DNA of 64,000 nucleotides from Thermoplasmata archaeon (GTDB lineage Archaea; Thermoplasmatota; Thermoplasmata; Lutacidiplasmatales; UBA184), in assembly GCA_022750155.1 (NCBI GenBank), contig JAKIWG010000006.1, positions 14,339 to 78,338 on the forward strand, read 5' to 3'. Position 1 is the first letter of the stretch. Each line of letters begins with the position of its first letter. Of this stretch, positions 2,822 through 15,602 are shown piece after piece. The position numbers and the translations under genes were made by a program. The notes beneath the pieces were generated by a model that saw nothing but the letters and a program-made list of their open reading frames with translations, did not search any database and was not told the origin of the DNA.

Positions 2822-3391
2822 GTGCCGCAGGACGAGGCGTCGGCCGACCGGCCTCCCCGACGCCGCGAATCCTGGAGCCTGACGACCCTTGTCGAGGAGG
2901 TCGCCGGGCGGCCGATCACCGAATTCCAGGAACCGGGACGCCCGGTCCATCCCTACATCCAGGTGAAGTTCCCCCCGAACGCGCCGGCCCGGTCGGCACG
3001 CCCCGGCTCTTCCCCGGGGTCCGGGTACGACGCCCCGTCCCCGGTGCCGGAGGAGGAAGAGGGAGGCCCGGTCGGCCGCGTATTCCCGCCGCTCACCGGC
3101 GCCACCGGTCGCGCCTTGCACGGCCCCGACCAGGAGCACCATGCGCCCACGTTGCGCTCGGTGACCTCTGGCTCGGGGAACGGTGGTCCGGGCGCCCCCT
3201 CGCACCCCCCGGGCCCCTCCCGACGGCCCGAGCGGATCTACCTTCACTACCTGCTGCTCCACCTCGACCGGTTGAGCGGCCCGGCGCTGAGGTACCTCAA
3301 GCTCGCCGTCGACGAGGAGGTCTCGCATCGGGACGCGCCGCCGGAGGCCACCCCGCCGACCGAGACATCGTCTCCTCCCGAACGCGCCTGA
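2822..3391 (+). CDS. Hypothetical Pro-rich protein with a helical C-terminal motif
   Basis: TATA-like CTATATA at about 2791; low-complexity centre; ordered C-terminus ERIYLHYLLLHLDRLS. Confidence 0.65.
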   Translation: MPQDEASADRPPRRRESWSLTTLVEEVAGRPITEFQEPGRPVHPYIQVKFPPNAPARSARPGSSPGSGYDAPSPVPEEEEGGPVGRVFPPLTGATGRALHGPDQEHHAPTLRSVTSGSGNGGPGAPSHPPGPSRRPERIYLHYLLLHLDRLSGPALRYLKLAVDEEVSHRDAPPEATPPTETSSPPERA

Positions 3392-4121
3392 GCTCGGCGG
3401 CCCGTCCCGGGTCGAGCTCCACCCCGATCGCGTTCCGCCCGAGGCGCGTGGCGGCCCACAGGGTCGTGCCGGAACCCGCGAACGGGTCGAGCACCGTGTC
3501 CCCGGCCACCGAGAACATCCGGATCAATCGCTCGGGGATCTCCGGCGGGAACGCCCCAGAGCGGCCGTCGGCGGAACGCTGGGGGATCCCCCGGATGTCC
3601 CCCCACACCTGCGAGAACCAGCGGTCCCGTTCCGCCTTGGTGAACCGGCTATCGTAGCGTCCCGGATCTCCCCGGGGGAAGCGGCGGTTGCGCCCGCGTC
3701 GGAACAGCAGGATGAACTCGCAGTCGAGGGTCACGTACGCGTTCGGGGGCAGGAAACCCGATCCGAGGAAGGCGTTCGGCCGGTTCGTCGGTTTCTTCCA
3801 GAGAACGTACGGGAGCGCTCGGAACCCCGCCGCCCGGCACGCGAGGGTCGCCTGCGCGTGATTCGGCCAGAGTTGGAACTCTCCGTCGGAGGAGCGAAGG
3901 GCGTCTCCGATGTTCAGGGCGAAGATACCCCCCTCGATCAGGACCCGGTGGCACTCCTTCCATGCCCGGCCCAGGAGCGAATGCATCGCCTCGTAGGAAT
4001 GGGCCCCCTGCTCGGCGAACTGCCGGTCCCATTGGGGAATCATCGGGTACGGGGGAGAGGTGACGACCAGCGCGACGGTGCCGTCGGCGACCGATCCCAG
4101 GTGTTCGGCCGACCCCTCCAC
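3297..4121 (-). CDS. Orphan beta-class N4-cytosine/N6-adenine DNA methyltransferase
   Basis: Catalytic VTSPPY precedes AFPPEIPERLI and SAM-binding VLDPFAGSGTT..GVEL; no adjacent endonuclease; true start may lie slightly upstream. Confidence 0.9.
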   Translation of the reverse strand: MEGSAEHLGSVADGTVALVVTSPPYPMIPQWDRQFAEQGAHSYEAMHSLLGRAWKECHRVLIEGGIFALNIGDALRSSDGEFQLWPNHAQATLACRAAGFRALPYVLWKKPTNRPNAFLGSGFLPPNAYVTLDCEFILLFRRGRNRRFPRGDPGRYDSRFTKAERDRWFSQVWGDIRGIPQRSADGRSGAFPPEIPERLIRMFSVAGDTVLDPFAGSGTTLWAATRLGRNAIGVELDPGRAAELRRVREETMSRSAGWPPAARPDARPPRRRRA

Positions 4122-4210: not shown

Positions 4211-5515
4211 ATGCGGCTCGACCGGCCGGTCCTGCAGGTCGCGCTCGACTTTGAGAACCTCTCCCGGGCCCTGCCCGCCGCCCGGGAGGCGGTCGAGGGC
4301 GGGGCCGACTGGGTCGAGGCCGGGACCCCGCTCATCAAGAGCGAGGGACTGGACGCGGTCCGACAGCTGAAGAAGGCGTTCCCGGGCCACCGGATCGTCG
4401 CCGACATGAAGGTGATGGACACCGGGGCGTTCGAGGTCGAGATCGCGGCCAAGGCCGGGGCCGATATCGTCACGGTCCTGGGGACGGCGGACGACGACAC
4501 GATCGCCGACGCGGTCCGAGGCGGCGAGAAGTACGGCGCGGAGGTCGTCGTCGACCTGCTGAACGTCGCGGACCCGTTGGCCCGAGCGAAGCGGGTCGCC
4601 GAGCTCGGGGCGGCCGCGGTCTATTGGCACATCGGGATCGACATGCAGATGGCGGGGAAGACCCCGTTCGAGGTCCTCGCCCACCTGGCCCAAGGTTCTC
4701 CCATCCCCATCGGGGTCGCGGGGGGTCTCAACAGCGAGAGCGTCGCGGCCGCGGCCCGGGCGGGCGCGCGGATCCTGATCGTCGGGGGCGCCATCACCAA
4801 GAGCGCCCAGATCACCGAGGCGACGCGACGGATCCGCTCGGCGATCGACTCCGAGAAGGAGGTCGCCACGGAACTGTTCCGGCGCTACTCGGGAGCGGAC
4901 GTCCGGGCCGCTTTCCTCAAGGTCTCCACTCCGAACCTCTCGGACGCGATGCAGCGTCAGGGCGCACTCCACGGCCTCGCCCCCCACCTGAAGGACCCGA
5001 GCGTCCGGATCGCCGGACCGGCCGTGACCGTGGTCACCCGGGACGGGGACTGGGCGAAACCGGTGGAGGCCATCGACCGGGCGGGGCCCGGCGACGTCCT
5101 CGTGGTGGACGCCGGGAGCGGGCAGACCGCGGTCTGGGGCGAGCTCGCCAGCTGGAGCGCCCACGGCCGCAAGCTCTGCGGGGTCGTGATCGACGGGGCC
5201 GCGCGGGATATCGACGCGATCCTGGAGCTGGGTTTCCCGGTGTTCAGCCGCTATGTCTCGCCCAACGCCGGCGAGCCGAAGGGGCTCGGGGAGATCGGGG
5301 TGGATGTGGTCGTGGGAGGCCAGAGGGTCCGACCCGGTGACTGGATCGTCGGGGACCTCAGCGGGCTCGTCGTCGTGCCCCGGGAGCGGGCCTCGGAGAT
5401 CGCGAACCGAGCGCTCGATGTCCTCGAGCACGAGAATCGCGTCCGCGAAGAGATCCAGCGAGGGTCCACCCTGTCGGCCGTTCAGAAGCTCGAGCGGTGG
5501 GAACGGGTCGGCTGA
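4211..5515 (+). CDS. hxlA: 3-hexulose-6-phosphate synthase fused to an RraA/HMG-aldolase-like domain
   Basis: LQVALD, EAGTPLIKSEG, ADMKVMDTG, VAGGL (HPS barrel); C-terminal STPNLSDAM, AVWGELA, DGAARD, GDWIVGD (RraA-like). Confidence 0.93.
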   Translation: MRLDRPVLQVALDFENLSRALPAAREAVEGGADWVEAGTPLIKSEGLDAVRQLKKAFPGHRIVADMKVMDTGAFEVEIAAKAGADIVTVLGTADDDTIADAVRGGEKYGAEVVVDLLNVADPLARAKRVAELGAAAVYWHIGIDMQMAGKTPFEVLAHLAQGSPIPIGVAGGLNSESVAAAARAGARILIVGGAITKSAQITEATRRIRSAIDSEKEVATELFRRYSGADVRAAFLKVSTPNLSDAMQRQGALHGLAPHLKDPSVRIAGPAVTVVTRDGDWAKPVEAIDRAGPGDVLVVDAGSGQTAVWGELASWSAHGRKLCGVVIDGAARDIDAILELGFPVFSRYVSPNAGEPKGLGEIGVDVVVGGQRVRPGDWIVGDLSGLVVVPRERASEIANRALDVLEHENRVREEIQRGSTLSAVQKLERWERVG

Positions 5516-5640: not shown

Positions 5641-5715
5641 GCTCCCGTAGTCTAGTCCGGTCAAGGATATCGGGCCTTCGACCCGACAACGTGGGTTCGA
5701 ATCCCGCCGGGAGCA
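5641..5715 (+). tRNA. tRNA-Glu (TTC)
   Basis: Acceptor GCTCCCG/CGGGAGC plus discriminator A; anticodon stem TCGGG/CCCGA, loop CC-TTC-GA; T-loop TTCGAAT; no encoded CCA. Confidence 0.92.
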
Positions 5716-6059
5716 CTCCTACTCCCAGGCGACCCGACCAACCCCGAGAAGAGTCCGTGCTCATTGAAGGGATCCTACGGGCGGTCAACGGCGTCGTCTT
5801 GGTAGTCGTCTCAGTGCAGCACTTCCGGGCGACCAAGGAGTAACTGAGCCACCGAACGGTCAAGCCGTAACCGAGGGAGGTCGGGTCCGCGAGTTCTCGG
5901 GGGTAGGTCATCGACCAATATCTCGTCGATGTTCTGGCCTTCCGGAGGGGTTCCTCCAGGCCGTTCGATGACAACGAATAAGCCCCGGGGCTCTCTCGCG
6001 CTCTCCACTCCGGTTGGAAGGTCAGAGACCCAACCGGGGGCGATGACTGGGTAGGTCCC

Positions 6060-7202
6060 GTGGCGTCCTCCCGTACTCGGAATCGTCGCGCATCTCGCTG
6101 GTGGCGGACGCTCGCCTCCTGGCCGGGACGGAACTCCCGACGCCCGAGCAGGGTGCGCGTCGAGGCCGGCCGGCTGGCCCAGGTCCTCCTGGGACTGTTC
6201 TCGATCGGGTTCGCCATCGTCGTCCTCGCTGGCCCGCAGCTCTCCCTGACGGGTCTGCTGTACCTCCTCGGGGAAGCCGTAGCGGTACTCTCCGCCCAAA
6301 CGGTCCTCGCCGGGGGCCGGCTCCTCACGAAGGCCGGGGAACGATCCTGGTGGAGATTGATCCGATCGTGGGGGATTGTGGGAGTGGGGGTGATCGCCGT
6401 CGCGTTGAGCGTCTTTGCGATCCTCGACCCCACGCTCGAAGCCACGGCCGTCGTGTTTGTCCTGGCCCTGGCGGTGATCTCCCAGGGCTTGGGAAGGGCC
6501 ATGCAATCCACGGGTGTGACCCTCCCTCGGTGGCTGCGCGGGTCGACCCTCGCCACCGGGGTCTTCAGTGTCGTGCTCGTCGTCGCCTCGGTCGCGTTCT
6601 ACGGGTTCGCGCTCACGAGCTTCGCAATCCTCGTGGGCGTCATCCTGCTCATCAGCGGGATCGAGACGGTCGTCGCGGGGGTACATCCGACCGACCCGCG
6701 CCAGTTCGTGCTCCTCAAGCTGATCCTCTTCTCCTCGTTCTACGGCCTCGTCCTGATCAACTGGATCGACCTGCCGGACAACAAGGTCGTCCCGGCGTAT
6801 GGGCTCTGGTTGATCCTGACGTACATGGCGCCGTTTGGGGTGTTGATCGTCTTCCAGGGGCTGGAGGCGTGGCCGCTCGCCACCAGTCTCGGCCTGCTGG
6901 TCTCGCTGAACAACGACCTGGGCTACTTCTTCATCGGGAATCTGATCTTCGGGACCCACGTCCCCCTGGCCCCATGGATCGCCGGGCAATTGGGCTTCGA
7001 AGGTTCACAAGTCGTGACGGTCTTCGACGGCGGGTTCTTCACCCTCAACGTGACGTCATGGATGATGGGCCTGTCCATCTACGCCAGGGTCGCCGTAGTC
7101 GCCGCCATCCTCTACCACTGGTGGCGACACCCGGGTGAGATCGTGGCGCGGGCGGCTCTCCCCCTGGAGGGCTCTGTGGCGGTGGTCGGAGAAGAGGGGT
7201 GA
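6060..7202 (+). CDS. Polytopic membrane protein (HdeD/DUF308-like N-half)
   Basis: About 10 hydrophobic segments with LVGVILLISGI-type motifs; start uncertain. Confidence 0.75.
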   Translation: MASSRTRNRRASRWWRTLASWPGRNSRRPSRVRVEAGRLAQVLLGLFSIGFAIVVLAGPQLSLTGLLYLLGEAVAVLSAQTVLAGGRLLTKAGERSWWRLIRSWGIVGVGVIAVALSVFAILDPTLEATAVVFVLALAVISQGLGRAMQSTGVTLPRWLRGSTLATGVFSVVLVVASVAFYGFALTSFAILVGVILLISGIETVVAGVHPTDPRQFVLLKLILFSSFYGLVLINWIDLPDNKVVPAYGLWLILTYMAPFGVLIVFQGLEAWPLATSLGLLVSLNNDLGYFFIGNLIFGTHVPLAPWIAGQLGFEGSQVVTVFDGGFFTLNVTSWMMGLSIYARVAVVAAILYHWWRHPGEIVARAALPLEGSVAVVGEEG

Positions 7203-7260
7203 CGCCATCGGGTACAGACGTCAGGCGGGGAGAGTCCGGGTCGCTTCGAATGGTAGCGAA

Positions 7261-7306
7261 TGGGTTCGCTCCCCTAAGAAATGGGTCTACATCCCGCCGG
7301 GAGCAT
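7261..7306 (+). repeat. Imperfect direct repeat derived from the tRNA-Glu 3' end, copy 1
   Basis: TGGGTTCGctcccctaagaaatgggtctacATCCCGCCGGGAGCAT; both ends match the T-arm and acceptor stem at 5692-5715. Confidence 0.8.
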
Positions 7307-7413
7307 TGACCGAACCCGCAGGAAACTCACGGCGACCGTCCCCGACCGTGCGTCCATCTCCCGCGTCCGGCGGCGTCGATGGGCTCAAATATCCAGTTTA
7401 CGTTTAAACGCAC

Positions 7414-7626
7414 ATGGTCGTTCGGACGATCACCGTGACGGACGAAGCCTATCGCCGACTTCGGGCCCACAAGGGAGACGCCGAGAGCTTCTCGGATGTG
7501 GTCCTCCGACTGACCCGACGGAAGCCCCTTTCCGATTTCGCCGGTGTCCTGAGCCACGAAACGGCTTCCGCGCTGAGAGCTGCCGTGGTCGAGGATCGAG
7601 CGGAACGTCGACGACTGGACCGGTAG
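7414..7626 (+). CDS. vapB: VapB-type antitoxin (archaeal RHH-like)
   Basis: RTITVTDEAYRRL..K...ESFSDVVLRL...LSDFAG; TTTAAA box at about 7403; directly upstream of a PIN gene. Confidence 0.88.
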   Translation: MVVRTITVTDEAYRRLRAHKGDAESFSDVVLRLTRRKPLSDFAGVLSHETASALRAAVVEDRAERRRLDR

Positions 7627-7627
7627 G

Positions 7628-8044
7628 ATGCTGCTCGACGCGAGCTTCCTGATCGATCTGATGGAAGGCCAGCCCGAGGCCGTCGCGCTGGCGGCCGCGA
7701 TCGATTCGGAAGGTGCTCGGCTTCGACTGCCCACCCCGGTACTCTTTGAGCTGTGGGTGGGCGCGTCACGGGTCGGGGGACGGACAAGCGACCGCGAACA
7801 GCTCGAACTTCTCGAGACCTCCTATGAGGCCGTGGAGCTCGCTGCCGCCGATGCCCGGTCGGCCGGGACCCTCCAGGCGACCCTCCGTCGAGCGGGACGC
7901 GCGCTCGGGACGGTGGACGCCCAGCTCGCGGGAATGGCCCTCGCTCGTTCGGAGGAGCTGGTCACCGGCGACGAACTCATCATGGGCATCGGACACGGCG
8001 TTCCCGTCCGCGCATATCGGAGGAAGAAGTCGGGCGGAACCTGA
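7628..8044 (+). CDS. vapC: PIN-domain toxin
   Basis: LLDASFLIDL, PVLFELWVG, DAQLAGMAL, LVTGD PIN motifs. Confidence 0.9.
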   Translation: MLLDASFLIDLMEGQPEAVALAAAIDSEGARLRLPTPVLFELWVGASRVGGRTSDREQLELLETSYEAVELAAADARSAGTLQATLRRAGRALGTVDAQLAGMALARSEELVTGDELIMGIGHGVPVRAYRRKKSGGT

Positions 8045-8130
8045 TCCTTGGCGGGGGGCCCCCCGGGAGCGATCTCCCTCTCCGCGCGCCGCCCGCATAG
8101 GGTCCGAAGTGCCGCCGCCGAGCGGGTCGT

Positions 8131-8176
8131 TGGGTTCGCATCCATCAGAAATGGGTAGGCCTCCCGCCGGGAGCAT
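8131..8176 (+). repeat. Imperfect direct repeat derived from the tRNA-Glu 3' end, copy 2
   Basis: TGGGTTCGcatccatcagaaatgggtaggccTCCCGCCGGGAGCAT; aligns without gaps to copy 1. Confidence 0.8.
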
Positions 8177-8352
8177 CCCCCTCGATTTGTCCTGACGAGA
8201 TCCACTGGTCCGAACGGTGGCCAGAGATCGCGGTTTACGGGGGCGGGGAGCGGCGAGGCTGGGAACCTTCGAATCCGGAATCCGGGAGGGCGATCAATCG
8301 GATGCGGGCTGCCGAGCCCCCACGGGCAGGGACGACGCGCGGGTGGCGCCGA

Positions 8353-8553
8353 CTACTCCTTCCTGAAGACCTCGGCCTCGGCGAGCCGAAACGCGGTGAG
8401 CCGCTGGTTCTCGTCCCGTTCCACGAATGGGTAGAACGACCTGGGGTCCTTACCTCCGGCTTCGAGTCTCTGCTGCAGGACCTTCAACTGGGCCATGTAG
8501 CCGTCGAATGCTTCAACGAATTCGGCAAGCTTCTTCTGTCGATCCATCGGCAT
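8353..8553 (-). CDS. Small hypothetical helical protein
   Basis: MPMDRQKKLAEFVEAFDGYMAQLKVLQQRLE...; protein-like composition unlike the Arg/Pro/Gly shadow ORFs. Confidence 0.55.
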   Translation of the reverse strand: MPMDRQKKLAEFVEAFDGYMAQLKVLQQRLEAGGKDPRSFYPFVERDENQRLTAFRLAEAEVFRKE

Positions 8554-8874
8554 ACGGGCCGCTACGATTCGAGCGGCATGAATCTTTCCTCGCCCTCGTA
8601 ATGGCTGAAGTGGCTGGACCTGGCTCTTCCATCCGAACAGGTCGGGGAGGAGGACGTGCCGGAGGTACCTAGGAAGACCTTTGGCTCGTAAGGGACACGG
8701 TGCGCGACACTTCACCTACGTGCCGTCTCTCCTATGGCGGCACACGGAATCGGTGGTCCCGCGACCCCCGAGTGGGGGAATATGACCTGTTCCAAAGTGC
8801 CCGCCGGAGCGTCTCACCGTCCAAGGGGCGGTGCCAATCGATCGGTTCTTCCGACCCGGACCGGATCCCGCGGA

Positions 8875-10029
8875 TCAGTCGTGGACGCCGACCAACTCGC
8901 CCCCGCGAAGGATCGGAGTGCCATCGATCGCCAGGTCGGCCTTGCGGATCGGGGAGTATGCCACGAATCGGGAGCCGCGGTTGTGACCCCCCATCTCGGA
9001 ATTCCGTCCGATGGTCAGGGAGACCACGCCGCGTTCCTGGTCGAAGAGGAGGGGGATGGAGGTCGTCGATGGATTCAGCCCGATCGAGATCAGCCCCGGG
9101 CGCTCCTTCCCCTGGGCCGCGGCCCGGTACGCCTTACGAAACTCCGCCTCGCCCCGCTCGAACGAGTAGTCGGTAAGCTTTCCGTTCCGGAAACTCCACC
9201 GGCCGCCGCTGAGCGGGATCTGATTCGGGGCCTCCGAAGAGAACGCCACCCCGCCGGGCCCATCGCTGATGAAGGTCCCGTCGGCAAACCGTTCGTCGAC
9301 CGTGACCACCGCGGCGCCGCTAGGGACCACCTGCACCACGTTGCCCGCCCGGACATCGTCGTCATCGAGGACGCCGTCGTCGACCCTCGGGGGTCGGCCC
9401 GCCAGCCTGAGCGTGAGATCAGTACCGTTCTTGTGGGTGATACGGATCGACTTGCCGGTTCGGAGCCACTTCGCCAGGTACCGCCCATCCCGTCGCATCG
9501 GACGGGGGTCGACGGTCGCTCCCTCGATGAGCTCGGAGCGCCAGCTCGAGAGATCCACTCCGTACCGATGGGCCCAGACCTCGCTGGTACGACCGAGGTC
9601 CCAGCGGATCGACCGGATCCCCGAGCGCTGGACCAGGCGGAACCACTCGTGGTCGTTGGCCATGATCCGGCTGCGGACCGAAGCGGGAAGTGCCTCCTCT
9701 CGCGTCGTGTCGTACGGCCCCCAGAGGTAGACGTGAGCGTCGCTTGCCTTCAGCGTCGCCCACTCGTGGGCGCCGACCTGCCCCAGGTGGGCGGCGGGCG
9801 CCTCGGAGACGCTCTTCCAGTAGGTGGCTTCGTCCTCCACCACAAGCAGGGGACGCGCCCCCAGAATGCGCGCCTCCAGTACGAGGCTATCGGCCCAGGC
9901 TTGGGTTCCACTCCAGGTCTCCACCAACAACTTCTCGCCGCGCCGCAGGAGGAGGGAGTTCCGTAGGACGTTTCGGGCGAACGCCCGACGGGTAGACTCC
10001 GGGTAGTCGCCCAGCACGGCACCTCCCAT
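8875..10029 (-). CDS. M29 aminopeptidase-like protein, probably degenerate
   Basis: N-terminal ARNVLRNSL....GEKLLVE, GTDLTL, PSG, ADGTF, SIGLNP, TIGRN..MGG.N; upstream GGAGG. Confidence 0.75.
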   Translation of the reverse strand: MGGAVLGDYPESTRRAFARNVLRNSLLLRRGEKLLVETWSGTQAWADSLVLEARILGARPLLVVEDEATYWKSVSEAPAAHLGQVGAHEWATLKASDAHVYLWGPYDTTREEALPASVRSRIMANDHEWFRLVQRSGIRSIRWDLGRTSEVWAHRYGVDLSSWRSELIEGATVDPRPMRRDGRYLAKWLRTGKSIRITHKNGTDLTLRLAGRPPRVDDGVLDDDDVRAGNVVQVVPSGAAVVTVDERFADGTFISDGPGGVAFSSEAPNQIPLSGGRWSFRNGKLTDYSFERGEAEFRKAYRAAAQGKERPGLISIGLNPSTTSIPLLFDQERGVVSLTIGRNSEMGGHNRGSRFVAYSPIRKADLAIDGTPILRGGELVGVHD

Positions 10030-11293: not shown

Positions 11294-11623
11294 TTCCGGC
11301 GCTGCTGGGCGACCTCCAGGGTGCCCAGCCCCCCCATCGGTCGCCTGGGCACCCGAGTCCCACGGGCCGATCCAGATCCCCAACCCGACAGGGACGCCGG
11401 AGGAATCGAGACGACGAGGGTCCCCCTGGCCCGGATCCGAGTCCTCCGGTGGCCACCGTGGACACATTGGAGCGGTCTCCGAGCCGGACGAATCCTCCGG
11501 TCGAGCCCGTCGAACACGCCTGGCCCCGAACCGCGGGGACACGGACTCCACCGAGTAACGGAGTTCTCGCAGAGTATCGCCGCCGGCGGTCTAAATACCG
11601 TATTCCCGTCCCAGCGGTCGTCG

Positions 11624-14230
11624 ATGAGCGCGGCGTTCACCCCAAGCAAGCCCATGCTGATTCCCCGGCGGTTCGGACGATTACGGCCGCTGTTCCTCCC
11701 CGTGGTCTTCGGCCTGATCCTCCTGATGCTATGCCCGTCCGTCCCCGGGCCACTTCACGCCGTCCCGGGCAAGGCTTCGACGGTGGGTAGCGCCTCTCAC
11801 GTCACAGGGTCGGACTTAGTGACCGAGGCCAGAAACTCGCTCCATACCCCACTGGCCCACGCGGGCCCCGCCCGGCCCCCGGGCAATGGGTCGACCGCTC
11901 CCTCCTGGTATCCTGCGGCCGGGTTCGGTTCTTCGACCTCGAACCCGGCCCCTCGACGCGATATGCAGATGACCTACGATGCCGCCGACGGCTACGTCCT
12001 CATGTTCGGCGGTGCCGGCGCGGTCCTCTACAACGAGACCTGGGTGTTCCAGAACGACTCCTGGCGTGAAATCTTCCCTGCCGTCTCCCCCCTACCGACC
12101 GGAGGGGGAGAGATGGTCTACGATGCCCACGACGGATACGTAGTGCTATTCGGCGGTCAGGTGAATGGCGCGGTGGTGTCCAACCAGACCTGGGAGTTCC
12201 TCGGAGGGAACTGGACGCAATTGTTCCCTTCGGTCTCTCCCCCGGCTCGCCAACTCGCCGGGCTCACGTACGACGCGGTGGACGGGTTCGTCCTGCTGTT
12301 CGGCGGGAACGACAACGAGAACATCTCCTACTCCGACACCTGGTCGTTCGCGGGCGGGAGCTGGACCAACCGGACGTCCTCCGTCGGGACCGGACCCTCG
12401 CCGCGGTCCACTTCGATGACCTACGACGCCACGGATGGGTACGTGCTCCTGTTCGGAGGGGCGCCTACGGTGGGTGCCGCGTTCGGCGACACGTGGAAGT
12501 TCGATCGGGGGAACTGGTCGGTGGTAAATCCAACCTCTTCCCCATATGCCCGTTGGCCTGCCCCCATGGCGTATGATGCGGCCGACGGCTACGTCCTGCT
12601 GTTCGGGAGCATCGGCGTCCAGGGGGCCAACGGATACCAGAACGACACCTGGGAGTATCGGGGCGGGGCCTGGAGCGAAGTGTTCGGTGCCTACACGCCG
12701 AGCGGACGCTGGGTGAGCGCGATGACCTATGACCCGGCAATCCGCGCGGTCGTCCTATACGGGGGATATCTTCAACCGAACGACCTGGGGGACACCTGGA
12801 CCTTTTCCGCGGGGAACTGGACCGCATGGGAGCCGGCCGCGGGAGCGACCCCCCCGGCCCGGTCGGATCCTGCCATGGCCTTCGACGCGGCCGACGGATA
12901 CGTCCTGCTGTTCGGGGGGCAGGGCGCCTCCGGCCTCCTCAACGACACCTGGAGCTACGCGGGCGGGACCTGGACCCCTCTCTCCCTGGGCCATTCGCCC
13001 ACGCCCCGCAGTGGCTCGGCCATGGTCTACGACTCGACCGACCACTACCTCCTCCTGTTCGGAGGGTCGGGCGCTTCCGGCCCACTCAACGATAGCTGGC
13101 GCTTCTCGAATGGCAGCTGGCAGGTTATCCCACCGGCGGGGGGGGTCTCCCCGCCGGCGCGGGCGAACGCCTCGATCGCCGACGACGCGCGCGACGGGTA
13201 CGTGGTCCTGTACGGCGGGCTCGCCGGGGGGGACCTACCGGATACCTGGAGCTATGCCGCCGGCGCCTGGCACCGACTCACGCCGAGCTCCGCACCCTCC
13301 GCCCGGAGCGGTGCGGCGATGGCGTACGATCCCGTGACGGGGCGCGTGATCCTCTTCGGGGGGATGATGTCGACCAGCACGAGTCCCCCCAATTTCTCGC
13401 AGTTCTCTGAAACCTGGGCCTTCACCAACGGTCATTGGAGCCTGCTCAACGTCAGCGGAGCGCCGAGCCCGCGCGATGGAGCCGGTCTGGCCTACCTACC
13501 GACCGCGAGGGCGCTGATCCTGTACGGCGGCAATATCGGGCCCCCCGGCAGCCCCGGCACGGACACGTGGGCGTTCAACGGTACCAATTGGACGAACCTG
13601 TTCCCGTCGGTCGACCCCGGCCCGGCCAGCTACTTCGGCTTCGGGTGGGAGGCGACTTCCGGCGCCATCGCCCTCTTCGGCTCGTCGGTCCCGGGGGCCG
13701 GGCTGCCGATCACCTGGCAGTTCAGCTACGGCACGTCGAACAACTCCTCGGGGTACCCCGCGGCGCCGCTCCGGGTCACGACGAGCGTGCTGCGGGCCTC
13801 GGGAGGTCCTCCGGAGTTGGTCGTCCTCACCGCCGTGATCACGGGGGGAACCCTCCCTTACACACTGCAATGGATCTTTGGGGACGGCACCCAAGGTTCT
13901 GCGCGCCCGGATGCGGCGGTCTCCCATACCTACCCCGGAGCCGGCCGCTTCACGGCCGTCTTGATCGTACAGGACGGGTCTGGACAGCGAGCGCAGACCT
14001 CGACACCCATCCAGGTGGCTCCCCCAGCTGGCCCGGGGTCTCCCAACGGTCCCCTGGGCGGAGAGGTCGCCGGGCTCCTCGCAGTGCTGGGGGCAGCGCT
14101 CGTGGGCGGAGCCGTCGCCACCACCTACCTGTACCACCGGTACCGGCTTCGCGAACTCGAGCGTCGGGAAGGGGAAACGCTCGTTCGGGAACTCCGGAAA
14201 TCTCAGGAGGGGGCTCCCGGGCCGCCCTGA
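11624..14230 (+). CDS. Surface Kelch-repeat beta-propeller plus PKD domain, with C-terminal TM and short cytoplasmic tail
   Basis: Signal-like N-terminus; about 12 repeats of MxYDAADGYVLLFGG...DTW; PKD motif WIFGDG..VSHTYPGAG; TM followed by RRE-GETLVREL. Confidence 0.88.
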   Translation: MSAAFTPSKPMLIPRRFGRLRPLFLPVVFGLILLMLCPSVPGPLHAVPGKASTVGSASHVTGSDLVTEARNSLHTPLAHAGPARPPGNGSTAPSWYPAAGFGSSTSNPAPRRDMQMTYDAADGYVLMFGGAGAVLYNETWVFQNDSWREIFPAVSPLPTGGGEMVYDAHDGYVVLFGGQVNGAVVSNQTWEFLGGNWTQLFPSVSPPARQLAGLTYDAVDGFVLLFGGNDNENISYSDTWSFAGGSWTNRTSSVGTGPSPRSTSMTYDATDGYVLLFGGAPTVGAAFGDTWKFDRGNWSVVNPTSSPYARWPAPMAYDAADGYVLLFGSIGVQGANGYQNDTWEYRGGAWSEVFGAYTPSGRWVSAMTYDPAIRAVVLYGGYLQPNDLGDTWTFSAGNWTAWEPAAGATPPARSDPAMAFDAADGYVLLFGGQGASGLLNDTWSYAGGTWTPLSLGHSPTPRSGSAMVYDSTDHYLLLFGGSGASGPLNDSWRFSNGSWQVIPPAGGVSPPARANASIADDARDGYVVLYGGLAGGDLPDTWSYAAGAWHRLTPSSAPSARSGAAMAYDPVTGRVILFGGMMSTSTSPPNFSQFSETWAFTNGHWSLLNVSGAPSPRDGAGLAYLPTARALILYGGNIGPPGSPGTDTWAFNGTNWTNLFPSVDPGPASYFGFGWEATSGAIALFGSSVPGAGLPITWQFSYGTSNNSSGYPAAPLRVTTSVLRASGGPPELVVLTAVITGGTLPYTLQWIFGDGTQGSARPDAAVSHTYPGAGRFTAVLIVQDGSGQRAQTSTPIQVAPPAGPGSPNGPLGGEVAGLLAVLGAALVGGAVATTYLYHRYRLRELERREGETLVRELRKSQEGAPGPP
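11960..13700 (+). repeat. Intragenic Kelch-type repeats (about 50 codons each)
   Basis: Recurring GACGGNTACGTNCTNCTGTTCGG and GACACCTGG motifs. Confidence 0.8.
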
Positions 14231-14237
14231 CCCCCCG

Positions 14238-15602
14238 ATGGCCTGCGCCCCGCCGCTTCGACCTCCCCCCGCCCGCTCGGGCCGTTGGCCCGGAGGGATT
14301 CTACTCGCCGTGATCATCGTCTTCCTCTCCCCGCCCGGCGGACCGACCCCCACCGTGGGGTCTGCCACGCCGGGAGGCAATGGATCGACCGCGACCTCCT
14401 GCGAGACCGGGCTGGTGGTGATCTCCGTACCCACCCAAGGGCCGGCCCCGTTGCTCGTGCAGTTCTCGGCGATCGTGAACTCGCCCGCCCACACCGGGTT
14501 CTCGTGGTCGTTCGGGGATGGGGCGATGGTCGTCGGAACCAACGGGTCCGAACATTCCCTCGTCCACCTCTACCAGTCGGCTGGCAACTACCTGGCGAAC
14601 GTGACGGCCGCCGGCCCCAACGGGACCCTGAGCTGCTCGATCGGCATCGTCGTGACGCGCGGCGGTCTTGAGGCCCACATCTTCGAGTCTCCTCATTCGG
14701 GCACAGTCCCCTTCACGGCTCACTTTGTGGGGTCGGCCTCGAACGGCACCGACACGTACCACGAGTTCCTATGGGATTTCGGCGACGGTGGGCAGGGGTC
14801 CGGGGTCTCCCTCAACTACACGTTCCGGACCTCGGGGAACTACACGGTTTCATTGAGGGTCGACGATAGCTCCGGGGCCTCGGCCATCGCCACGGTCCGC
14901 ATCCTGGCCCTCCCCAATCCCTCCCGGTCGCCCTCGCTGGGCGATCCGAACGCAGGGGGCTTGGGCGGGCTCAACGGCCCGTTACTGTGGGAGGGGGTGA
15001 CGGTCAGTGCCGCGGTGATCGTGGGCGTGGGACTCTTCGCGCTCGCACTCGCACGACGAGGAGCCGCTCGGTCACTCGCCCCCGGGCTCGAGAGGGTGGG
15101 GCCGTCGGCCGATGCCCGCAATCGGGTCGAGACGGCCCCGCTTGCGCCTACCCCGCCCATCGAGATCCCCGGGGCCGCGGAGACTGTGGAAGTAACGGCT
15201 CCCCCGGCTCGCACTGCAGGTTCTGTCCCACCTCGCGCCGCGGTGGGAGGTGGGACCGGTGTATCCGTCGAGTCCGTACGGCTCTCCCAACGGATCATTC
15301 GGCATCTCGGACGGTCCGGGATACTGGCTCAAGAGGGGACGGTGGGCCGTGAGTTCACGCAACGAGGGATGGCCGAGGCCCTCGGGGTCCGGCAGGGACC
15401 TCTGTCGAACGTCCTTCGACGGCTGGTAGCAGCCGGTGTCGTCACCGAAGAGTTGCGCCACGTCCGAGGCGCACCTCGCCGCGTCAAGGCCTACCGACTG
15501 AGTGCCGAGGGCAGGGCCCTCGCCCTCGAGATCCGTGCCGGGGAATCGGAACGATTGGGGCGAACGCTCCAACCGTCTGAACCTACGCGGATCCCCCGCT
15601 GA
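14238..15602 (+). CDS. Membrane-tethered regulator: signal, 2x PKD, TM, Pro-rich linker, winged HTH
   Basis: WSFGDG and WDFGDG PKD motifs; TM WEGVTVSAAVIVGVGLFALALA; C-terminal FTQRGMAEALGVRQGPLSNVLRRL..GVV...KAYRLSAEG. Confidence 0.85.
   Translation: MACAPPLRPPPARSGRWPGGILLAVIIVFLSPPGGPTPTVGSATPGGNGSTATSCETGLVVISVPTQGPAPLLVQFSAIVNSPAHTGFSWSFGDGAMVVGTNGSEHSLVHLYQSAGNYLANVTAAGPNGTLSCSIGIVVTRGGLEAHIFESPHSGTVPFTAHFVGSASNGTDTYHEFLWDFGDGGQGSGVSLNYTFRTSGNYTVSLRVDDSSGASAIATVRILALPNPSRSPSLGDPNAGGLGGLNGPLLWEGVTVSAAVIVGVGLFALALARRGAARSLAPGLERVGPSADARNRVETAPLAPTPPIEIPGAAETVEVTAPPARTAGSVPPRAAVGGGTGVSVESVRLSQRIIRHLGRSGILAQEGTVGREFTQRGMAEALGVRQGPLSNVLRRLVAAGVVTEELRHVRGAPRRVKAYRLSAEGRALALEIRAGESERLGRTLQPSEPTRIPR

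Follow-up and report, generated by a model that had tools for sequence, protein, structure and literature searches.

Small integrase-less units in tandem behind a tRNA-Glu gene of a soil Thermoplasmata archaeon, probably built up by serial site-specific insertion

The DNA considered here is a stretch of 64,000 nucleotides from an uncultured Thermoplasmata archaeon of acid soil (GTDB lineage Archaea; Thermoplasmatota; Thermoplasmata; Lutacidiplasmatales; UBA184), namely positions 14,339 to 78,338 of the forward strand of contig JAKIWG010000006.1 in GenBank assembly GCA_022750155.1. This whole 64-kb stretch is called the window, and positions refer to it unless a contig or locus is named. The genome it belongs to (G000) is a metagenome-assembled genome (MAG) of 2.13 Mb in 51 contigs, 93.7% complete; G-numbers stand for genomes of the genus, C-numbers for contigs and L-numbers for loci. 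The subject is a tRNA-Glu(UUC) gene at 5641-5715 on the plus strand and the row of three small units that follows it, bounded by copies of the 3' end of the tRNA. The tRNA gene is intact and intron-less, was called by ARAGORN and matches Rfam RF00005 with 60.3 bits (5641-5715/6); it forms the attB/attL side of what looks like a series of attachment (att) sites. Its last 14 nucleotides (nt), TCCCGCCGGGAGCA at 5702-5715 (plus strand), are referred to as the core. They correspond to tRNA nt 60-73, that is, the 3' strand of the T-stem, the 3' strand of the acceptor stem and the discriminator. Three repeats lie behind the tRNA on the same strand. R1 (7261-7305), the right end of unit 1, consists of a T-arm mimic TGGGTTCGCTCCC, a spacer and a core at 7292-7305, and R2 (8131-8175), the right end of unit 2, of the T-arm mimic TGGGTTCGCATCC, a spacer and a core at 8162-8175. 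R3 (8774-8811) is decayed; it combines a T-arm mimic of inverted type with GCCCGCCGGAGCG and is the probable right end of the array.

A search of the window for TGGGTTCG-N(0-30)-TCCCGCCGGGAGCA gives three matches, all on the plus strand (5692-5715, 7261-7305 and 8131-8175). There is no gap between the two halves in the tRNA and a gap of 22 nt in both R1 and R2. None of 100 dinucleotide shuffles of the window contained any match, the exact copies of the core in the window are the three in the tRNA, R1 and R2, and across the whole G000 genome the gapped pattern occurs only at these three places. The repeats are not due to chance, and the first-pass annotation of this DNA, which had pointed out that the halves of the tRNA end recur at 7261 and 8131 with a 22-nt insert, was right about them. 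It had also called the inserts related and capable of forming a hairpin; the inserts do have AGAAATGGGT in common, but the hairpin (ATCCAT-CAGAA-ATGGGT) is present in R2 only. The left half of the repeat is longer than the 8 nt of the search pattern, as GGTTCGCATCC in R2 agrees with the T-arm of the tRNA at 10 of 11 positions, so the insert can be placed equally well anywhere between nt 57 and 63. The core of R3, GCCCGCCGGAGCG, carries a 1-nt deletion, and R3 aligns with two type-2 repeats of G126. Parts of the stretch occur in two soil metagenome runs. In a public soil run, which may be the source sample, contigs span the passage from the tRNA to unit 1 and that from R1 to vapB; the junctions cannot be put down to the assembly of this MAG alone.

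The body of unit 1 (5716-7260, plus strand) contains an open reading frame (ORF) at 6060-7202 for a multi-pass membrane protein of 380 amino acids (aa), for which no Pfam, PADLOC or PHROG family matched; the atlas lead is a Thermoplasmatota cluster in which 16% of the members have DUF308. Unit 2 (body 7306-8130, plus strand) encodes a toxin-antitoxin pair, with vapB at 7414-7626 (PF02697, 9.7e-16) and the PIN-domain vapC at 7628-8044 (PF01850, 4e-14), and a TATA-like TTTAAAC stands just upstream of vapB. The order of tRNA, membrane gene, repeat, vapBC and repeat given by the first-pass annotation agrees with these ORFs and Pfam matches. Unit 3 (body 8176-8773, no strand assigned) has a 120-aa ORF on the minus strand at 8353-8715 that matched nothing in Pfam or PADLOC. 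Its segment is found at 84% identity in a soil metagenome contig (L221), about 330 nt after another type-1 repeat. No PADLOC family was found for five other cargo proteins either. The units of the window are without recombination or transfer genes and are bounded by att-like repeats. Homologues of the membrane protein in seven congeners sit elsewhere in those genomes. As an example of a homologue within an array, in G008 (contig C11, L006, reverse strand 410-2652) a protein with about 62% aa identity is the second unit of an array at tRNA-Lys and begins 35 nt after a repeat of tRNA-Lys type, made up of an inverted T-arm, 14 nt and the core. Judged by this homology, one cargo family occurs at arrays of different tRNAs, at tRNA-Lys in G008 and at tRNA-Glu in the window.

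The array stands between conserved neighbours. To the left is a gene for an HPS (OMP-decarboxylase-fold)/RraA-like fusion protein (4211-5515, plus strand; PF00215 and PF03737), which lies directly upstream of tRNA-Glu in the loci of six relatives with 81-88% aa identity; in these six loci the left flank is kept and the downstream content is different. An N6/N4 DNA methylase gene (3297-4121, minus strand) is conserved in relatives together with this HPS-RraA/tRNA-Glu flank. To the right is a gene for an M29-like aminopeptidase (8875-10029, minus strand), with a weak match to PF02073.

For the comparison, the genus was taken as the 150 species genomes of soil Thermoplasmata in the collection searched, and genus-wide counts take in the unpublished genomes G019, G088 and G110. 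Arrays were detected by core-only searches followed by reading of the loci, and homology was established by all-against-all blastn. Core-bounded units were found in seven of the 150 genomes, that is, in G000 and in six more (G095, G119, G076, G126, G062 and G061), which extends the search of the genome and its relatives that the first-pass annotation had proposed. Behind tRNA-Glu(UUC), G095 has a parDE-like pair, vapBC and more; G119 has an inverted pair of genes containing a PIN domain, two ORFs of no assigned function and a third unit with a decayed repeat; G076 has one unit; G062 has vapBC; and G126 has vapBC and one more unit, with decayed cores. The 11 units between recognisable cores in the seven genomes measure 741-1576 bp. 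Gene content at the site is thus not fixed among relatives, the outcome on which the first-pass annotation had staked its reading: cargo, number and order of the units vary, and blocks of homology begin and end at cores. The clearest case is G119, which agrees with the window on both sides of the array, in methylase, HPS-RraA and tRNA-Glu on the left and in the M29 peptidase and a 91-aa ORF on the right, and whose units in between are all unlike those of G000. There the M29 gene lies 3.4 kb after the second repeat of that genome, and the right-flank homology between G000 and G119 begins near 8867.

Single units can be followed from genome to genome in the same way. The vapBC blocks of G000 and G095 are homologous at 80% nt identity, starting with the first base of one core and ending with the last base of the core that follows. 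The vapBC unit is the first one in G165, G126, G062 and G100 and the second one in G000 and G095, and in G165 it begins at the core of the tRNA itself. The unit of G076 is the third unit of G119, which also occurs in a soil contig with an intact repeat, followed there by a left end of vapBC type. In another soil contig a G119-type unit is joined to the segment seen as unit 3 in the window, and in G023 a G119 unit is present at another place. The cargo genes of G119 are on the opposite strand and its repeats retain the orientation of the tRNA, which argues that the repeats belong to the site and not to the expression of the cargo. It is worth noting that G061 has two tRNA-Glu cores and a vapBC unit on a contig (C177; L102, L114 10510-11330) with no tRNA-Glu within 10 kb upstream, the tRNA-Glu genes of that genome being on other contigs; the array may have been translocated, may belong to a larger element or may reflect an assembly join. 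Pattern matches in G053 and G091, considered as further repeats, turned out to lie within coding sequence and were set aside as chance. A metagenome scan with fixed spacing returned 30 loci, of which 13 were one unrelated coding sequence, nine were other unrelated sequences, four were known arrays (two G095-like and two G119-like) and four were new type-1 repeats. Because the spacing was imposed by the scan pattern, these loci are not counted in what follows on spacing.

The repeats have a regular layout. The distance from a forward GGGTT to the core is 30 nt in all seven copies (two in G000, two in G119, one each in G095, G076 and G061), a spacing that was not imposed by the search, and it is 25 nt in a decayed copy of G070. 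An inverted mimic stands 21-25 nt from the core in G095, G126, G118, G008 and R3 of the window, and G062 has the contiguous form of the repeat at tRNA-Glu. When the seven copies are aligned, the spacer is about half conserved and free of indels, and the GGGTT, CC, A, G and C columns are invariant. The alignment suggests that the 22-nt insert serves as a spacer whose length is constrained, placed in the arm of the element between the T-arm mimic and the core, and that the mimic is likely an integrase-binding site. The crossover itself would lie in the core, since continuous identity with the tRNA is found only there and the tRNA retains its own T-loop. The first-pass annotation had taken the insert for a binding or crossover feature; binding is here assigned to the mimic and crossover to the core, with the insert left as a fixed-length spacer. 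A conserved fold of the repeat, attC-like or at the RNA level, was considered and ruled out, as none of ten predicted pairs covaries in the seven aligned repeats and single-strand DNA folding is no better than in shuffles (z-scores -0.7, +1.4, -1.7 and +1.3).

Further elements of the arm lie outside the repeat, and units with different cargo have conserved ends in common. The motif GGAGAGTCC is found 54 nt ahead of the core in R1 of G000 (7229-7237, plus strand) and in R2 of G095, and 36 nt ahead of it in G076. Its reverse complement lies 15 nt behind the core (12 nt when taken as GGAGGACYCTC) at six of the 28 junctions listed, and together they may make up a pair of flanking sites. The mimic is not confined to the array. 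A T-arm mimic is present at most 40 nt before the core at all five att-like sites found in G000, with per-site chance values of 0.098 and 0.0014 for the two at tRNA-Glu, 0.0006 for tRNA-Gly, 0.0016 for tRNA-Cys and 0.015 for tRNA-Lys. The order of mimic, spacer and core is therefore a general trait of att arms in this genome.

The three sites away from tRNA-Glu are of different kinds. An element of about 49.5 kb occupies tRNA-Gly(CCC) (G000:C43:27420-77057; L070, L076). It carries a 495-aa PF00589 integrase with a zinc ribbon that begins 43 nt behind the tRNA, and the T-arm of the tRNA recurs inverted and without mismatch (11/11) ahead of its distal repeat, TCCCGACAACCGCA; G119 has an integrase 79% identical to that of this element. 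Behind tRNA-Cys there is a unit of about 0.8 kb (G000:C16:40483-41359; L074) whose closing repeat is 13 nt of the tRNA end with a T-arm mimic and which encodes a DUF7557-like antitoxin and a ParE toxin with 35-42% aa identity to the pair of the G095 tRNA-Glu array. Behind tRNA-Lys, a unit of about 0.7 kb (G000:C43:160315-161129; L075) is closed in the same manner, and its cargo is a 127-aa ORF of no family.

Some elements that use the tRNA-Glu core have an integrase of their own. In G084, a 15.8-kb integrase-carrying element is bounded by the 19-nt sequence TCCCGCCGGGAGCACCTCA, which includes the core, and one copy of it ends the tRNA-Glu(CUC) gene. The same integrase family is encoded immediately after tRNA-Glu(UUC) in G058 and G118, where the elements exceed 18 kb, and behind tRNA-Glu(CUC) in G061. 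Other members lie behind tRNA-Ala (G095, G101, G164), tRNA-Lys (G041) and tRNA-Met (G096), and in total the family is found in 86 of the 150 genomes, often in several copies. The query came from the unpublished G019, and the conclusions were re-checked on the public genomes G095, G084, G058 and G118. Pfam gave no match to the family in the two members scanned, and a sequence search against solved structures matched nothing. PHROG_1 (integrase) matches the N-terminal domain with 1.3e-8, NCBI and JGI name members site-specific integrase, and nine of 120 listed homologues have PF00589. On these matches the family is assigned to the tyrosine recombinases, and the sequence TCCCGCCGGGAGCA is taken to be a working att core.

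No such enzyme accompanies the arrays. The first-pass annotation had seen no integrase in the window, and indeed PF00589 has no match on the whole contig of the window; the search for tyrosine recombinases that it had suggested finds PF00589 matches of G000 on contigs C43, C11 and C16, and the core-using family in congeners. In nine array regions neither an integrase nor a remnant of one was found (best tblastn E 0.09), and with none in any array, a recombinase acting in trans would be the natural explanation. The units at tRNA-Glu and the integrase-bearing elements have the same core and different arms, and there is no helper element in tandem in the window.

The reading that we favour, and regard as fairly probable, is that the repeats are the distal junctions of three integrase-less units inserted serially into the 3' end of tRNA-Glu(UUC) by a tyrosine integrase. 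Each insertion would be a site-specific exchange inside the 14-nt core. The core copy of the incoming unit would rebuild the tRNA, and the displaced core copy would land behind the unit, preceded there by the unit's own arm with its T-arm mimic and spacer. New units would enter adjoining the tRNA, leaving older units further out, and the units, which mostly carry toxin-antitoxin genes, would depend on an integrase from another element. The locus is on this account a hotspot of gene swapping, probably served by a recombinase encoded elsewhere. As there is no integrase of the family in G000 as assembled, the array is probably static at present. The proposal of the first-pass annotation, tandem capture of cassettes in trans in the manner of an integron, keeps its array logic, its variable units and the lack of an integrase in the array; the likeness to integrons fails in that no integrase adjoins the array, no attC-like fold is seen and the cargo stands in either orientation.

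Several points weigh against serial insertion of small units. Searches for the tRNA-Glu integrase family found no member in G000 (best E 0.008) or in G119. The arms of the units have GGAGGACYCTC behind the core, where integrase-bearing elements at tRNA-Glu have GGTTTAATACC or TTAGGGTAATACC. Assembled contigs of four soil runs showed no excision joint or circular junction (parts not covered by contigs are not evidence here), and three scans of viral contigs for arm-plus-core patterns gave zero, zero and one match, the last unrelated. Arrays are rare, as the seven genomes out of 150 already indicate, and they account for 3 of the 30 tRNA-linked loci of one listing; the array of G061 is detached, on its contig without tRNA-Glu within 10 kb. 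Finally, vapBC of G000 and G095 is 83-85% identical at the nt level in the genes and 69-75% in the arms, compared with 80% for a flanking host gene. The vapBC unit of these two genomes may accordingly be read as inherited from their common ancestor, with later insertions adjoining the tRNA, of the membrane gene in G000 and of the parDE-like pair in G095.

The main rival to serial insertion holds that the units never moved as small units at all, and are the eroded stumps of once large integrase-bearing elements that accumulated in tandem and lost their interior by deletion, the toxin-antitoxin genes surviving because they are addictive. Large elements with the same integrase family and core are known from G084 (15.8 kb) and from G058 and G118 (both above 18 kb), G000 itself has the 49.5-kb element at tRNA-Gly, and the parts consulted of one survey (PMC8371274) describe loss of the integrase after integration in archaea. 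A stump would also agree with a vapBC divergence equal to that of the hosts and with the decay of the third repeat. What it explains poorly is the uniformity of the units: all 11 measured are 0.74-1.6 kb long, with none intermediate in size and none with an integrase fragment, units of different cargo have the conserved ends in common, the same unit with the same two ends occupies different array positions in different species, and the unit arms are unlike those of the large elements. Erosion is on balance doubtful, though it deserves more weight than any other alternative. A transposon that duplicates its target is a much less probable source. Casposons insert at tRNA 3' ends, make duplications of 14-15 bp and can do so in tandem. 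All three habits suit the array if the units are taken as non-autonomous casposon-like or other target-duplicating transposons and the 14-nt repeat as a target-site duplication, and G000 has one Cas1 gene, on contig C10. Cas1 was however not found in three of five array genomes (G095, G119 and G076) and never within an array, and the core also bounds an element in which a tyrosine integrase is the only recombinase found. Terminal inverted repeats specific to each unit had been seen by eye and were rejected as a candidate feature: over 11 units the inverted-repeat score was 5.8 for own ends, no better than the 5.6 +/- 0.95 for the ends of other units. With this, casposon-like insertion is very improbable. 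Tandem casposons are mentioned in the portion consulted of PMC6563490. The Cas1 match in G000, a 399-aa frame at C10:6522-7373 on the minus strand, is the only one found in that genome, and G126 has several copies of Cas1.

Two further alternatives deny that the repeats are recombination sites. One of them, the fossil T-loop intron that the first-pass annotation had offered as its own alternative, takes the repeats for the 3' halves of tRNA-Glu pseudogenes with an intron in the T-loop. Such an intron is real in this genus: a second tRNA-Glu gene (CUC) has an intron of 26-32 nt between T-loop nt 59 and 60 in nearly all genomes sampled, the search pattern giving at least one match, and typically two, in 97 of 101 genomes. 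In G000 the gene (C49:46599-46705; L068:2598-2708; minus strand) forms a clean bulge-helix-bulge with UUCA/UGAA and the bulges AAG and AAU. Its 3' exon is identical to the 14-nt core, the repeats have their spacer at the same 59/60 position, and attP sites carrying an intron figure in a published model (PMC3293823, as far as that source was available). The test of bulge-helix-bulge folding that had been suggested came out negative: by inspection none of the seven repeat copies forms the motif, and nt 54-57 make no more than 2-3 weak pairs with the 4 nt that precede the 3' bulge; no tRNA-like body was found upstream of R1 or R2 even at E <= 10, and none of the tRNA-Glu(UUC) genes listed has a T-loop insert. 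A spacer without a splicing motif and without a tRNA body ahead of it is not a fossil intron, and pseudogenes would not edge blocks that differ among species, as the repeats do; this origin is about as improbable as the transposon. The last alternative has the repeats act as RNA, as tRNA-like minihelices of acceptor stem and T-arm that steer processing of cassette transcripts by RNase P or tRNase Z. GCTCCCC in R1 and GCTTCCG in G095, which follow GGGTTC, can pair with CGGGAGC, and ATGGG-N7-CCCGC resembles a T-arm. R2 makes only five of seven such pairs, the absence of covariation and the shuffle-level folding given above speak against any such structure, and in G119 the cargo on the other strand leaves the repeat outside its transcripts. 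We rate this the least probable of all.

The intron of tRNA-Glu(CUC) has a bearing of its own. In G084 and G061, and in G066 to judge by overlapping coordinates, integrase elements occupy this tRNA-Glu(CUC) gene despite its intron, with the 3' exon used as core, so this T-loop intron gives no shielding from integration. A T-loop intron in the tRNA-Glu(UUC) genes of relatives was also considered and dropped, as the longer genes proved to have canonical introns at 37/38. Canonical 37/38 introns of about 25-28 nt are present at 5 of 20 tRNA-Glu(UUC) loci printed (L031-L035, from G018, G021, G019, G003 and G004, respectively), and ARAGORN miscalls such genes as tRNA-Arg or misses them. For G000, ARAGORN reports 40 tRNA genes when short introns are allowed, several of which look doubtful, and as the T-loop intron had to be spotted by hand, there are probably more tRNA genes with introns at odd positions in this genome that it missed.

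Parts of this picture are familiar from other systems. For archaea there are descriptions of rebuilt tRNA sites used again in tandem, of short att sites and of integrase loss (Krupovic et al. 2019, PMC6563490; Badel et al. 2021, PMC8371274). As far as the consulted portions of these two papers go, the archaeal tyrosine-integrase elements, like the array, occupy the 3' part of a tRNA gene, are bounded by direct repeats of its end, stand in tandem, have short att sites (median 17 bp in Thaumarchaeota) and include members without an integrase. They differ in that here every unit is 0.6-1.6 kb long with one or two cargo genes and no integrase, that the arms are conserved across cargoes, that units are shuffled among species and that the mimic stands 30 nt from the core. 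In bacteria, the cis-mobilizable elements (CIMEs) and site-specific accretion of Firmicutes offer a parallel; CIMEs are stacked at a tRNA-type site, and the integrase of a related element is believed to mobilise them. Excerpts of one account of these integrase-less, att-flanked elements (PMC5704250) match the units here in the flanking att sites, the lack of recombination and transfer genes and the tandem arrangement at a tRNA-type site. Unlike CIMEs, the units here have an archaeal host, are far smaller, have no tandem helper and carry arms that are not those of the integrase-bearing elements.

Integrons are one-sided arrays of small cassettes that each end in a recombination site, with insertion at the anchor end and frequent toxin-antitoxin cargo, as in the cassettes of chromosomal integrons, and integrons in archaea have reportedly been found (Ghaly et al. 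2022 being the work in question). The array shares with them the variable series of small units each ending in a recombination site, the insertion at the anchor end and the toxin-antitoxin cargo. It departs from them in having a tRNA gene as anchor with no integrase adjoining it, a fixed 14-nt core without attC-like folding, and units in either orientation with promoter-like elements of their own. The genomic islands at ssrA in Dehalococcoides are bacterial, many kilobases long and associated with integrases, unlike the units here. To judge from sections of the paper on them (PMC3146451), these ssrA-specific islands are also in tandem behind a gene for a small stable RNA and bounded by repeats of its 3' end. 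For introns, Sugahara et al. 2012 (PMC3293823) postulated, in the passages available, attP sites with a tRNA fragment and extra sequence at the intron position, and Randau and Soll are cited there for the view that introns shield tRNA genes from integration. The att arm described here likewise has a tRNA fragment interrupted at 59/60, a real intron position; in contrast to that model, its spacer has no bulge-helix-bulge and no tRNA-Glu(UUC) gene with the spacer was found, and in contrast to the shielding idea, integrase elements sit in the intron-bearing tRNA-Glu(CUC). A literature search found no account of such arrays in Lutacidiplasmatales, and the text of the founding paper of the order (PMC9287336), supplements aside, does not contain the words "integrase", "toxin", "mobile" or "intron". 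Distinctive of the arrays are the cassette-like size and shuffling, the conserved arm with its displaced T-arm mimic, and the coincidence with the T-loop intron site.

If the units do move in trans, archaea would trade single genes at tRNA anchors without an integrase in the traded unit. The cargo is mostly toxin-antitoxin or other conflict-type genes, and an analogue of the integron cassette would then have arisen from ordinary tRNA-targeting integrases. Extended to the soil Lutacidiplasmatales as a whole, the idea becomes tentative, a possibility that we think somewhat unlikely: these archaea would have a tRNA-anchored counterpart of the integron, in which units of at most 1.6 kb with conserved arms are shuffled at tRNA-Glu, tRNA-Cys and tRNA-Lys by a genus-wide integrase in trans, and recombination of the mimic with the T-arm of the tRNA would plant the spacer in the T-loop, giving a route for the birth of T-loop introns such as that of tRNA-Glu(CUC). 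Natural att arms with extra sequence at a real intron position bear in any case on the origin of tRNA introns at odd positions and their link to mobile elements, and tRNA-Glu(CUC) adds a T-loop intron without protection from integration. In practice, the arrays mark variable regions in genomes assembled from soil and account for the clusters of small toxin-antitoxin genes found behind tRNAs. The window also encodes a 969-aa Kelch-propeller/PKD protein, at 11321-14230 on the plus strand, a few kb downstream of the array.

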